A stretch of DNA of 64,000 bases from a virus, in the IMG/VR virus record IMGVR_UViG_3300017593_000402, positions 32,001-96,000 of that record. One strand, written 5' to 3'. Of this stretch, positions 45,292 through 64,000 are shown piece by piece. Below the pieces are notes generated by a model. That model worked only from the letters and a program-made list of their open reading frames with translations. It made no database searches and was not told the origin of the DNA. Positions within the stretch are counted from its first letter, which is position 1. Each line of letters opens with the position of its first letter. A program made the translations under genes and the position numbers.

Positions 45292-45380
45292 AATACTAAC
45301 TCGCATTAGGGGGTAGAAGAGTGTTTACGAGGCTGGTGATCGCTTTAATCTTGTGCTTTTTTCGTGTTTGTTAGTCACGC

Positions 45381-45414
45381 TCTGGGAGTAGCACGTACTA
45401 GCGCCACTCCCAGA
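45381..45414. repeat. Inverted repeat / hairpin
   Basis: TCTGGGAGT ... ACTCCCAGA, a perfect 9-bp stem. Confidence 0.6.
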
Positions 45415-45547
45415 CCCGGTCCAGTAAGACCTACAGCACTTAGGGTACTTCATTAGGTGAGTCAGACCGCTTTGAATCATCGGCAGAGCTTTACACGAGG
45501 GTACAACTGTATTACAGCTATTATCTTCAATTGGGAGGTCCGAAAAA

Positions 45548-46090
45548 ATGGCCGAACTATTAGTCAAGTCTAGTGATACGACAAACCCCGATCCAATAAA
45601 AGATTTACGCGGATGCTACAAAAAGGGTGACGTTGTAGTTGTGAAGCCAGATGGATGGAAATGGGGGAAAGAAGAGTTGAACAAGAATAAGTTCTACATT
45701 CTGTGTGTGCCTGACAAAGAAGTCGATGAATTAAAGTTTTTGACAAAGGAAGATGAAATTGTGCTGGGAAATCGGTACATTGCTGAGTCTCCTGAATTAG
45801 GAGTAATGGCAGAAGGTCCTGATGCAGAGACAGCATCTAAGACTTGCCAAACCCTAGCTGATGCTGTTCTGAAGAGATTACAAGACCACGATTTATCTCC
45901 TAGTTACCAAATCGTAACAAGAATAGAACCTATCAGACACGTTGTGGCCAGGCGCAGACATAGGATCAACATTGAAGATATTGAGGACATCCTACAAAGT
46001 GAGGTAGTTGCTGAAGTAACCAGTGACAAAATCAGCGTAACAGACAAACCTCAGAAAATATCAGCAACCTTAGCGAAGCTGGCTAAGTAA
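45548..46090 (+). CDS. Hypothetical virion-associated protein with HicB-like segment
   Basis: YKKGDVVVVKPDGWKWGKEE; internal YIAESPELGVMAEGPDAETA. Confidence 0.55.
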   Translation: MAELLVKSSDTTNPDPIKDLRGCYKKGDVVVVKPDGWKWGKEELNKNKFYILCVPDKEVDELKFLTKEDEIVLGNRYIAESPELGVMAEGPDAETASKTCQTLADAVLKRLQDHDLSPSYQIVTRIEPIRHVVARRRHRINIEDIEDILQSEVVAEVTSDKISVTDKPQKISATLAKLAK

Positions 46091-46091
46091 A

Positions 46092-60678: not shown

Positions 60679-62556
60679 ATGAGTTACGATGTAACCTCTC
60701 TTATTTCGGAAAGACTTGATGCTATTGAACACGGAGCGGCTACTACTACAGGAGCGATTAATAGTTTTTTGGATGAGTTTTTGCACAGAGGTGGAATAAG
60801 CATTAGTCTTGCTCCAATTAAAGATTTGCCTATTCAGGTTGAACCTATTCCTGACTTACCAGAGGAAATAAATGTTTCTGATTTAGATTATATTCCTACT
60901 GATTTAACTTTTCCTGATCATCCTATAGAAGAATTTGATTTAAACGAGCTTGTTTCTGAATTTGATTCTATTTCTACAGAAATAGGGCAGAATATAGACA
61001 AACCTCTTATTAGTTCTGTATCTCAAGCTTTAGATTCTATTTCTATGCCTGAAATTCCTGACGATTTAGATTCCATAACTGAACCTTCGTTAGAAGCAAT
61101 TTCTTTGCCTACGCTGCCTTCGTTTGATAAAGTGTCGGTTCCTTATCCAGAATCAATTACAACTGAGTTTTCTCCTGCGGATATACCTTCTCTTGCATTT
61201 ATTGAAACGCAACAGTTATTTAAAGAATTTGATTCTCTTTTACAAAAAGATTTGCAATTTTCTAGGTATGCACATGAATTGATAAGAGATAGACGCTCTC
61301 GAATTAAGGAGTTAATAAATTTTTACGAACGAGTTTTGAATATTCTCAAAACTACCAATCCTCTCCAAAGAGTTGAAAAAGTTATCAATGAAATAAATTT
61401 TATTGTAGATGAGGGAGAGAAAAGATTTATTAGTCCTATTTATGAGAGATACAGTTCTTTTGCTTCTAAAGATGTCAGAGATAAGTTAGAGAATTTGTAT
61501 TACCAGGCCAAAATTTTGAGTACGGGTCAATTGAAAGAAAAATACTTTAGTGAAAACGTTTTCACTGACCGTGATAAAGAAGATGAAATAGAATCTTTAG
61601 AACTTCAACTCAAGGAAGACTTAGATAAACACGAGACTGCTTATATAGATGCCTGCATTCAAGTTTGGAATGTTACTACTTCATATGTTCTTTTGTATGT
61701 AACCAAATTATTAATAGAATTTCAGCAAAGGCTTAATTATGAAAATATTTTGGTTCAGCTCCATGAGGACCTAAGTAAAGCAATTTTGAGATATTATGAT
61801 ATGTATAATGCTTTGCTCCAAGCTGAAAATACACAATTAGATAAGTTCAAAGCTGTTTTGAATAGAGCTAGTATGGAGTTAGATAAAATTCAATCAATTC
61901 TTGAAAAGAACAACGCCTATATAGAGGCTTATGCTGCTCAGGTTAGAGGGCTCCAAACTTTGGTTGATAAGTATAATGTAGATAGAAGACTATACCAAGC
62001 TCAGCTTGCTGAAAGATCATCTAGAGTAGATTTAGCTAGAAGCGTTTATCAAAACAATCAAGCTAAAGTTGATTTATATCAAAGAGCTGTAGCTCTGGTT
62101 AACAAGCTTTATGGTCTAAGACAAGAAAAAGTGAGAGATATTCTTAACAGAGGTAGAATTAAATTGGGGTTTGCTAAAGCTCAACAACAGTTAGACGTGA
62201 CAGTTTCTAAAGCTTTGGAAAACATTTATAATATTTATGGTGATATTATGGAAGTAGATATAGACAGATATAAAGCTGAATATAATAATATTTTGAATGA
62301 TAGTATTTTGGATTATAAAACTAAAGTTAGATTGAATGCGGAACGAGCTAATTTATTAAAACAAGCTTACTCTGTGTTTCTCCAAAAAGTGGGGCAAGAA
62401 GATAGGTATATTTTAACAAGTACTCGATTGATCAATGATATGGCAAACAGATTAGCTATGGAAGCTTTTAGGCCTTTGGCTTCTATGTCTTCTGGATTAT
62501 TGAGTGCTATTGATGCTGTTGTTAATGGGTTATACGAATTTGTAGCTGAGGGATAA
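60679..62556 (+). CDS. Acidic Pro-rich + long coiled-coil virion protein (paralog 2)
   Basis: Same architecture as the upstream gene; ends SSGLLSAID. Confidence 0.5.
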   Translation: MSYDVTSLISERLDAIEHGAATTTGAINSFLDEFLHRGGISISLAPIKDLPIQVEPIPDLPEEINVSDLDYIPTDLTFPDHPIEEFDLNELVSEFDSISTEIGQNIDKPLISSVSQALDSISMPEIPDDLDSITEPSLEAISLPTLPSFDKVSVPYPESITTEFSPADIPSLAFIETQQLFKEFDSLLQKDLQFSRYAHELIRDRRSRIKELINFYERVLNILKTTNPLQRVEKVINEINFIVDEGEKRFISPIYERYSSFASKDVRDKLENLYYQAKILSTGQLKEKYFSENVFTDRDKEDEIESLELQLKEDLDKHETAYIDACIQVWNVTTSYVLLYVTKLLIEFQQRLNYENILVQLHEDLSKAILRYYDMYNALLQAENTQLDKFKAVLNRASMELDKIQSILEKNNAYIEAYAAQVRGLQTLVDKYNVDRRLYQAQLAERSSRVDLARSVYQNNQAKVDLYQRAVALVNKLYGLRQEKVRDILNRGRIKLGFAKAQQQLDVTVSKALENIYNIYGDIMEVDIDRYKAEYNNILNDSILDYKTKVRLNAERANLLKQAYSVFLQKVGQEDRYILTSTRLINDMANRLAMEAFRPLASMSSGLLSAIDAVVNGLYEFVAEG

Positions 62557-62557
62557 A

Positions 62558-63568
62558 ATGCCTCGTTATTATGATCCAAATAAGCCTGTAAAAATAGACA
62601 AAAAACTGATTGAACAAGAAGCTCTCCAGACTCCTTGGATAGACCCTATTGATTTATTGACGTTTGGACGTGGAATTCTAGGCAAGGCTGGTGTAAAAGG
62701 AGCTGGAGAGGCTTTGAGTGCATTATCTATTAAAGGAGCGTCGAAAATGGGGCTAGCTAACAAAGCATTTAGTTTAGGAGGTAAGGCTCTAAAGAAAGGA
62801 TGGCCTGTGTTATTAGGCTATGCTTTAGGTTCTATGGGTGGTAAAGGTGAAAAACAAGAAGCTTTGCCTTCTGTAGAAAAACCTGCTCTTACTAGAGAGC
62901 AATTTCAAAGCTTTGTTGATCAAATTAATAGCATTTTAGGCGGAGGTATTCCTATTAATGAGTATTCTAGGCAGGCTGTAGAGCTAGCAACTAAAGCCTT
63001 GCCTACGCTGCAAGCCGCTTATACTCCTGTTATTGAAAGCGGCAGGGAAGCTGCAAAACGTTTAACTAAATTAACCTCAGCTATTCCTCTGACAACTACG
63101 CAAGGGCCGAGCTATTATGATACAGGACTACTAGACGTAATGGGTTCGCAGATTTCCAGGTTGCTAAGCCAGGCCCAACCTGCCGATATGAGTTTTGGTT
63201 CTTTATTAAGAGCTAAATACGCCAGGCGTGCTTTGCAAACAGCTCTGCCTACTTATGCAAGTCTGATAAATGCTGGGCGTCGATCAGTAGCCCCTTCATC
63301 TGTAGTGCCTAATTTAATAACTGCTGCTTATACTGCACAAACACAACCGCAACTTAATATGCTTGCTGCTTTGCCTCAGCTTCTTACAACAGCACAGACT
63401 ACTTTGCGTCAAATTGGAGCAGGACAACAGGCAAAGGCAGCTATGCTTCTCAATACATTGTTAGGGAGCCAAAACCGTATGGACGTAGCTACTTTAACTG
63501 CTTTAACAAGACTAGGTGCGCTTGATCCTACAATCAGAGATTTAATTCTTCAAAATTATATTCAATAA
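62558..63568 (+). CDS. Probable internal virion (DNA ejection) protein
   Basis: Ala/Gly/Gln/Leu-rich with Gly-rich hydrophobic stretches; position in a podovirus-like module. Confidence 0.5.
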   Translation: MPRYYDPNKPVKIDKKLIEQEALQTPWIDPIDLLTFGRGILGKAGVKGAGEALSALSIKGASKMGLANKAFSLGGKALKKGWPVLLGYALGSMGGKGEKQEALPSVEKPALTREQFQSFVDQINSILGGGIPINEYSRQAVELATKALPTLQAAYTPVIESGREAAKRLTKLTSAIPLTTTQGPSYYDTGLLDVMGSQISRLLSQAQPADMSFGSLLRAKYARRALQTALPTYASLINAGRRSVAPSSVVPNLITAAYTAQTQPQLNMLAALPQLLTTAQTTLRQIGAGQQAKAAMLLNTLLGSQNRMDVATLTALTRLGALDPTIRDLILQNYIQ

Positions 63569-63580
63569 GGAGAAAAACAA

Positions 63581-64000
63581 ATGCCTAATAATGCTCTTGC
63601 AGAACTTATAGCAAGAAGAATGTTAGGACTTCCTTTGCAGGGAGACTTAAATCTGCCTTCTGAGCAGGAGCAAGTAGGATTACCTCCTACTCCTGTTTCT
63701 CAATTACCACAAACTGCTATTCCTGCTGGAACTGCATTGGTTCAAGTTCCCCAAGCCCCTACTATGAGACAAGTAGTGGGTGAAGAGGAATCGTGGCCTA
63801 GTATTCTTGCTAAGTCTGCTGCTAGCGGATTAAGCCAAGTTGCTACAGGTGCGTTGGGAGCGGCATCAGGTATTTTGGAAAATTTAGGAGCTAATACTCA
63901 AGAGCTTCAAAATCTGGCTAATGAAATCAATCAAGCTTTGGCTCCTAAAGTAGGTAAAAGTAGAGCTAAATCATGGGTTGCTGGAATTATCCAGTCTACA
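63581..64000 (+). CDS. 3'-truncated ORF, probable large internal virion protein
   Basis: RBS AAGGAG, ATG 63581, open to the window end (MPNNALAELIARRMLG...SAASGLSQVATGALGAASG). Confidence 0.65.
   Translation, partial: MPNNALAELIARRMLGLPLQGDLNLPSEQEQVGLPPTPVSQLPQTAIPAGTALVQVPQAPTMRQVVGEEESWPSILAKSAASGLSQVATGALGAASGILENLGANTQELQNLANEINQALAPKVGKSRAKSWVAGIIQST

Follow-up and report, generated by a model that had tools for sequence, protein, structure and literature searches.

Record IMGVR_UViG_3300017593_000402 of the IMG/VR database is a virus record of 137,043 bp, and the window analysed here is the 64,000-nucleotide stretch from its position 32001 to 96000, in which a second set of virion genes follows the lysis genes of a first on the same strand (coordinates refer to the window unless the record is named). 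We found that this record is very probably an inter-genome assembly chimera, composed of ~78.4 kb of one phage (phage A, GC content 0.436) and then one full turn of a second phage of short-tailed type (phage B, 58,251 bp, GC content 0.373). These two unrelated phages co-occur in the same hydrothermal-vent metagenomes, and both have a homologous cassette consisting of a 180-aa gene and the N-terminal right-handed beta-helix domain of a larger protein, with 422 bp identical between them. In the mechanism that we propose, the assembler would have come into this 422-bp repeat from the A side, exited on the B side, circled B once, and stopped on re-entering the repeat from B’s own upstream flank. 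The original prediction had weighed three explanations for the two virion modules, and the one that it rated at least as likely as the others, an assembly chimera, is borne out by the repeat, by breaks in the assembly graphs, by uncoupled sequencing depths, and by the continuation of A beyond the join.

Two phage gene sets in one record

Calling of open reading frames (ORFs) and scans against PHROGs and Pfam confirmed the prediction of two unrelated head modules on the + strand of the window. The segment 1..45546 (+) is assigned to phage A only, which is long-tailed, has a GC content of ~0.44, and encodes its own portal, large terminase (TerL), protease, major capsid protein (MCP), tail and lysis genes. 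Phage A also occupies record positions 1-32000, upstream of the window, where family matches for 7 of 10 ORFs give it a replication set of its own, comprising ribonucleotide reductase (RNR), SbcCD, a helicase, DnaB, a DNA polymerase, and UvsX. The segment 46793..64000 (+) is assigned to phage B only (GC content ~0.37), and B runs on to record position 137043, forming a unit of 58,251 bp that closes on itself. The two MCPs had been described as having no visible similarity, and they show none of significance (best BLASTP E 0.13). Only 3 of the 77 A ORFs match any B ORF, with identities between 24% and 41%.

The GC content of the record is 0.42-0.46 over the first 78 kb and mostly 0.33-0.41 in the remainder, and within the window it drops from ~0.43-0.46 to 0.33-0.39. 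Arginine codons in A are 61% CGN and 20% AGA (n=560), compared to 31% CGN and 48% AGA in B (n=294). The fall in GC content and the shift from CGN to AGA after module A, both noted by eye in the original prediction, are thus reproduced by GC and codon counts.

A second portal or TerL had been reported missing from the window, and none of the 19 ORFs scanned at 45076-64000 matches a terminase or portal family. A check of the rest of the record, which had been recommended, located both genes of B beyond the window: a TerL (record 129212-130654; phrog_2 E 5.6e-34; PF04466 34.5 bits) and a portal-like protein of 1014 aa with an intein that bears a LAGLIDADG domain (record 130666-133710; L005:10666-13710). 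Alongside these, record 103-134 kb encodes a DNA polymerase, two helicases, a primase, and a UvsX-like recombinase, and 8 of 10 ORFs scanned in B beyond the window matched families. Because the high-GC and low-GC parts have separate replication, TerL and portal sets, the record holds two full unrelated phage gene sets, which is more than a single genome with an added capsid module would have.

Relatives of the B MCP, 77-98% identical, were found in six IMG/VR loci (6 of 55 stretches confirmed), and three B relatives, two of which have terminal repeats, are genomes of 60.2-61.2 kb with a completeness rating of 100%. The B part of the window is syntenic with these complete relatives. The A MCP was found in none of five B-relative records, and the A TerL in none of the three complete B relatives, in a search that found it in the window’s own record as positive control. 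Equipped with a TerL, a portal, an MCP, and replication genes of its own, B is a complete, self-sufficient genome and not a satellite.

A single genuine virus with two virion modules, either producing two particle types or having captured a module, would be in keeping with both modules being intact and on the same strand and with the rating of the record as 100% complete. We regard this as scarcely credible. DNA polymerase, DnaB, helicases, UvsX, TerL, and portals are duplicated beyond the capsids, the halves differ in GC content, codon use, and abundance, B-type genomes occur alone, and all of the evidence for a chimera counts against it. This option of the original prediction is accordingly not supported, with B complete by itself and all core functions duplicated, and it is contradicted by the uncoupled depths and by A’s native continuation.

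An exact repeat within a shared cassette

Self-BLAST of the record matched positions 77547-78792 (window 45547-46792) to its last 1,249 bp at 89.75% identity. A-only sequence thus stops at 45546, and 45547-46792 is a cassette carried by both phages. The A copy of the cassette (45547..46370, +) contains the 180-aa gene (45548-46090) and the first 93 codons of the beta-helix gene, and up to 46370 the A and B copies are ~75-96% identical per 50-column block. It is followed by 422 bp over which A and B do not differ at all (46371..46792, +; equal to record 136622-137043), and this is the misjoin site, within which the assembly crossing is located. The record’s final base is the copy of 46792, the repeat has a period of 58,251 bp, and the only exact A/B blocks of at least 31 bp are 45749-45780, 46305-46335, and 46371-46792. 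The B part overlaps itself at the record end, the first overlap copy being a diverged allele, and the low-GC part goes exactly once around genome B, which is circular or terminally redundant.

The join therefore lies in an exact shared repeat that, at 422 bp, is longer than the assembler’s word, as a chimera would require, and each side of it has a native alternative continuation, that of A in a contig of public run X4 and in proteins P0001 and P0121 (both described below) and that of B in the passage from the record end to B’s start. In the B relatives L097 and L098, one uninterrupted stretch holds the portal, the small ORFs found at record 133.7-135.7 kb, a two-gene unit, genes of 171 aa and 105 aa, and the MCP, and the large protein of the two-gene unit matches residues 318-697 of the 697-aa ORF that spans the join at 72%. 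This gene order indicates that the record end truly flows into B’s start. On the other side, a relative of A (L007) has A’s tail and lysis genes at 91-99% amino acid identity, followed by a homologue of the 180-aa protein (86%) and a beta-helix gene, and A’s holin is 83% identical to that of L007. Because L007 has the same order of holin and 180-aa gene, the junction from A’s holin to the cassette is native to the A lineage. No match for window 41001-49000 was found among GenBank phages (blastn, ‘distant’).

The ORF that spans the join (46092..48185, +; 697 aa) is a hybrid in which codons 1-93 are A-specific, codons 94-234 are shared, and codons from 235 on belong to B. In its B part, the beta-helix domain is completed by about residue 317 and is followed by a B-lineage C-terminal repeat domain (residues 318-697) that is 72-77% identical to B relatives. 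We rejected the drop in GC content at ~47.05 kb as the boundary between the genomes, as it corresponds to a domain boundary within the 697-aa ORF at about residue 318; the drop separates the exchanged N-terminal domain from B’s C-terminal domain. Position 46593, which as a letter specific to B would have confined the crossing to 46371-46592, was also rejected in that role, since it is an allele of A’s own gene (G168 in P0001, S168 in P0121), and it would narrow the crossing only if the source sample has the S168 allele.

Assembly breaks and depth in public runs

Four public runs (X1-X4) hold the junction, and we examined them as Logan contigs on window 40001-54000. In all four, a contig of 22.6-23.7 kb covers the A side from 40001 and ends at 45778/45780 (45624 in X3), and a 584-bp unitig covers 45751-46334 at A’s depth (30.2, 13.9, 17.1, and 33.6). 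Positions 46305-46792 are covered by a 488-bp unitig or, in X4, by the head of a longer contig, and the B-side contigs begin at 46763 (35.9 and 46.0 kb in X2 and X3). The contig ends at 45778/45780, 46334, 46792, and 46763 coincide with the exact A/B blocks, and a graph branch at the junction was present in four of four runs.

Depth on the two sides of the junction differed in every run, with an A:B ratio of 4.5:1 in X1 (A flank 36.1, B flank 7.95) and about 5.7:1 in X4 (28.3 and about 3-6), compared to 1:4 in X2 (13.6 and 55.6) and 1:3 in X3 (16.4 and 52.2). A coverage step at the junction had been named beforehand, as had a graph branch, as an observation that refutes a real join, and both were found, the step running in opposite directions in different runs. 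Coverage covariation across samples, also proposed as a check, gave uncoupled depths for A and B in the four runs. The shared 488-bp unitig had a depth of 63.9 in X2 and 67.2 in X3, approximately that of A plus B. Five differing letters at 46336-46370 in X2 and X3 match the record-end copy exactly, indicating that the record-end copy is B’s own allele.

The remaining option of the original prediction was tandem proviruses or a satellite-helper fusion, which we considered as residing in the chromosome of a host. Two phage genomes lying head to tail on one strand would fit such an arrangement, and a look-up suggests that the record belongs to a 187,126-bp contig, 50 kb of which is unseen. We consider this option exceedingly improbable given that the A:B depth varies from about 5:1 to 1:4 and that B wraps onto itself at the record end. 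No tyrosine integrase (PF00589) was found in the one record searched, whereas the control gave matches in 14 of 14 genomes; serine recombinases were not included in the search. No tRNA was found, and neither the scanned ORFs nor the region between the two parts showed a host-like gene. The satellite-helper version is further opposed by B’s possession of its own TerL, portal, MCP, and replication genes.

The native continuation of phage A

In X4, a 23,252-bp contig with a depth of 32 starts at 46305 and then departs from the window sequence, showing 39 substitutions and 2 indels compared to the window, almost all in 46793-47047. Its loose end translates to GGVLTAIAD, which are residues 320-328 of P0001, an 883-aa protein found in a protein search with residues 1-320 of the hybrid ORF. 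P0001 equals the window ORF in residues 1-234, is ~90% identical to it up to residue 323, and is unrelated to it beyond. Its cluster mate P0121 differs by G168S alone, which is the 46593 G>A change of X1 and X4. The native gene occurs on 1+6 contigs (P0001/P0121), the longest being 128,948 and 150,430 bp, while the hybrid 697-aa ORF occurs on 1 contig, the A-side neighbour gene on 12, and B proteins on 3-5. The 883-aa P0001/P0121 protein is thus the product of A’s native gene at the cassette. Phage A would span at least ~101.5 kb (78,304 + 23,252 bp), and perhaps ~150 kb. The 30-letter consensus of the X4 loose end had no exact match in viral_contigs or metagenome_contigs, and none of the sequences that P0001 retrieved was closely related to it, either in metagenome_contigs (best 48%, 49 of 268 stretches confirmed) or in genome_contigs (best 30-43%, 11 of 123 confirmed).

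Several points weigh against a chimera. X1-X4 all come from one study, and two of them may be the source sample; the comparison is a re-assembly of related data and less than fully independent as sampling. Depth is a single mean figure per contig, and the DNA of A’s native continuation is not read beyond the loose end of the X4 contig. Contigs cannot show the absence of linking reads, so that a minority of real A-B recombinants is possible, and the identical 422-bp segment is a possible substrate for real homologous recombination. In addition, an exact look-up gave 187,126 bp as the longest contig for each of the ten proteins looked up, from A, from B, and from the hybrid ORF, which exceeds the record by 50,083 bp of unseen content. 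The record terminates inside an ORF and starts in a stretch without a long ORF, and the additional 50,083 bp probably lie upstream of it.

These points bear most directly on a real but minor A::B cointegrate, formed by homologous recombination across the 422-bp segment in co-infected cells. Its substrate exists, exact over 422 bp and with flanks ~75-96% identical, the join is in frame and co-oriented, and rare variants are compatible with the contig data. However, the native A path in X4 has a depth of 32 compared to 28.3-33.6 for the A flank, leaving no measurable share for a path from A to B; free B far exceeds A in X2 and X3; and the hybrid ORF is found on 1 contig compared to 7 contigs for A’s native gene. 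Moreover, a molecule that combines A (at least 100 kb) with B (58 kb) would presumably be too long for either capsid to package. We therefore judge such a cointegrate to be very improbable. There is likewise at best a slim chance that the join is physical in a minority of molecules, with A and B co-infecting cells and transient cointegrates trading the beta-helix cassette between them. The recent exchange of the cassette and a probable shared host form the well supported half of that proposal, while the cointegrate itself does not share this support. We thus prefer an assembly chimera, and we infer that no physical A-B molecule exists.

Consequences for the record

As a phenomenon an assembly chimera is ordinary, and the two-capsid virus is not a real feature. 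For simulated viral metagenome assemblies, chimeric contigs are given as less than 2.5% of all contigs and less than 5% of contigs of at least 10 kb (Roux et al., 2017, PeerJ 5:e3817, PMC5610896). Like chimeric viral contigs in general, the record has two genomes joined at an identical region, ends at the repeat, and differs in composition and coverage on each side. Unlike them, its partners are unrelated phages and not strains or close relatives, linked solely by a cassette that was exchanged recently, and the resulting 137-kb record passes as ‘100% complete’, a rating that the 137,043 bp received although they are a concatenation.

The record thus poses as a 137-kb virus with two capsid systems and is in fact a phage fragment plus a whole second phage. 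The main value of this result is in database hygiene, as the uncorrected record would create false links between long-tailed and short-tailed-type clusters in gene-sharing networks, distort predictions of genome size, taxonomy, and host, and invite a spurious claim of a two-particle virus. The record should be split, with the A part treated as incomplete, and the complete 58,251-bp B genome is salvageable from it (record 78,793-137,043, or any equivalent 58,251-bp span). What remains as biology is the presence of one beta-helix cassette, with nucleotide identity of up to 100%, in two vent phages that co-occur but are unrelated.

Exchange of the beta-helix cassette

Unrelated tailed phages exchange receptor-binding or depolymerase (beta-helix) domains in modular fashion, a form of phage mosaicism. 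The cassette resembles such exchanges in that a beta-helix with 75-100% nucleotide identity is present in phages of different virion types, fused to lineage-specific remainders. It differs from them in that the beta-helix exchanged here sits at the N-terminus, ahead of a lineage-specific C-terminal part, and in that the beta-helix travels with a conserved upstream 180-aa gene. The GC content of the cassette (0.42-0.455) is nearer to that of A than to that of B, and B relatives have another N-terminal domain at the cassette site; because of these two observations, we infer that the cassette moved recently from an A-like phage into B. Recent exchange of the cassette is a hint of a common host, and A and B probably share one.

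Residues 1-330 of the 697-aa ORF were modelled as stacked short strands (pLDDT 87.2, pTM 0.88). In a Foldseek search with the N-terminal domain, the top match was the PL6 alginate lyase 7dmk (E 2e-4), at a low template modelling (TM) score of 0.46, and further matches, all with low TM scores, were to pectate lyase Pel9A, chondroitinase B, and, lower down, phage tailspikes. The beta-helix domain had no Pfam match, and a sequence search of solved structures gave nothing meaningful for the 697-aa ORF (E 0.79) or the 180-aa protein (E 0.45). On the strength of the model, the N-terminal domain is predicted to adopt a right-handed beta-helix fold, that of the enzymes which gave the best Foldseek matches. 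The 180-aa protein had no PHROG or Pfam match, and its AlphaFold model was poor (pLDDT 67.2, pTM 0.43).

A relative of the beta-helix domain is encoded in 132 of 148 IMG/VR stretches, and the N-terminal domain had 195 homologues at E ≤1e-3 among 4,108 candidates, with varied C-terminal parts and with some coming from metagenome-assembled genomes (MAGs) of candidate phyla. Homologues of the domain (window 46092-47050; loci L156-L165) at 30-38% identity lie in large proteins of Parcubacteria, Wolfebacteria, and Omnitrophota MAGs, and further MAG labels are Falkowbacteria, Uhrbacteria, and Saccharimonadales; these could be prophage or surface proteins. For the 180-aa gene, 14 relatives were found, and it lies directly upstream of a beta-helix gene in at least eight contigs. 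A third phage type, represented by the 52.8-kb contig L006, has the 180-aa gene at 88%. In X2, the 32-bp unitig 45749-45780 has a depth of 100 compared to ~69 for A plus B, indicating that this word of the 180-aa gene also occurs in at least one more genome of the sample.

The cassette of L007 (L007:9649-14128) consists of the 180-aa gene, a 537-aa beta-helix gene, and ORFs of 268 aa and 105 aa. Two copies of the holin, which are 83-84% identical to that of A, and a 146-aa homologue of A’s 158-aa ORF flank it. This arrangement could reflect either insertion of a cassette with duplication or another assembly problem.

Further features of phages A and B

The module of A in the window begins with a 1422-aa portal that has an intein-like insert (7213..11481, +; phrog_12 E 3.5e-19, phrog_2662 E 1.6e-13), and the insert, residues 591-669, matches a segment of phrog_85. 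The TerL of A lies at 12434..13879 (+; phrog_38 E 7.4e-63), the protease at 14829-16055 (+; PHROGs/Pfam scan), and the MCP at 16055..17005 (+; phrog_212 E 2.1e-25, PF17236 46.3 bits, PF05065 39.4 bits). The module further has an adaptor, a 2205-aa tape-measure-like protein, and a J-like tail protein. Its last lysis gene is holin-like (45076..45291, +), with weak matches to holin families at E 0.002-0.0025. Within the head-tail connector block of A, a 630-aa protein (18350-20242) has a GT2 glycosyltransferase domain (PF00535 33.3 bits, phrog_13126), and a free-standing LAGLIDADG homing endonuclease (21994-23079; phrog_11023 E 3.5e-20, PF03161 45.9 bits) lies between the neck and tail genes.

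In B, the MCP is encoded at 50010..50930 (+; phrog_267 E 8e-48, PF25209 39.3 bits with a cut-off of 27), a 206-aa head-tail adaptor of SU10 type at 51619..52239 (+; PF24175 E 9.9e-13, 49.4 bits with a cut-off of 27), and virion structural proteins, assigned by family matches, at 52966-53769 and 55501-56352 (+). In the PHROGs and Pfam scans, the sole family match of the ORF predicted as a scaffold (49070-49999) was phrog_13678, of unknown function, the ORF predicted as a decoration protein (50948-51385) had no family support, and the large ORFs predicted as ejection-type had no family matches. Of the ten B ORFs scanned beyond the window, those of 2590 aa and 577 aa had no match. The 2590-aa protein, which has neither a PHROG nor a Pfam match, spans window 63581-64000 and continues to record 103353 (L003:3581-11353), and tblastn against the first 91 loci fetched gave a single relative, L083, at 29%.

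Phage SU10 is a short-tailed phage of Kuravirus type. The 206-aa protein of B passes the SU10_adaptor cut-off (49.4 bits compared to 27), and the B portal-like protein and an intein-free homologue in L100 match SU10_portal weakly, below its cut-off (20.9 and 23.3 bits compared to 30). Unlike that of SU10, the MCP of B matches PF25209 and not SU10_MCP, which the MCP of A passes, and the B unit of 58 kb is a further difference from SU10.

The insert in the portal-like protein of B (residues 501-858) has a LAGLIDADG_3 match and a weak Hint match. Intein-free portals of ~669 aa are present in the B relatives L100 (L100:1930-3939) and L101 (L101:726-2459), and the TerL of L101 has an insert that is 34% identical to the insert in the portal of A.

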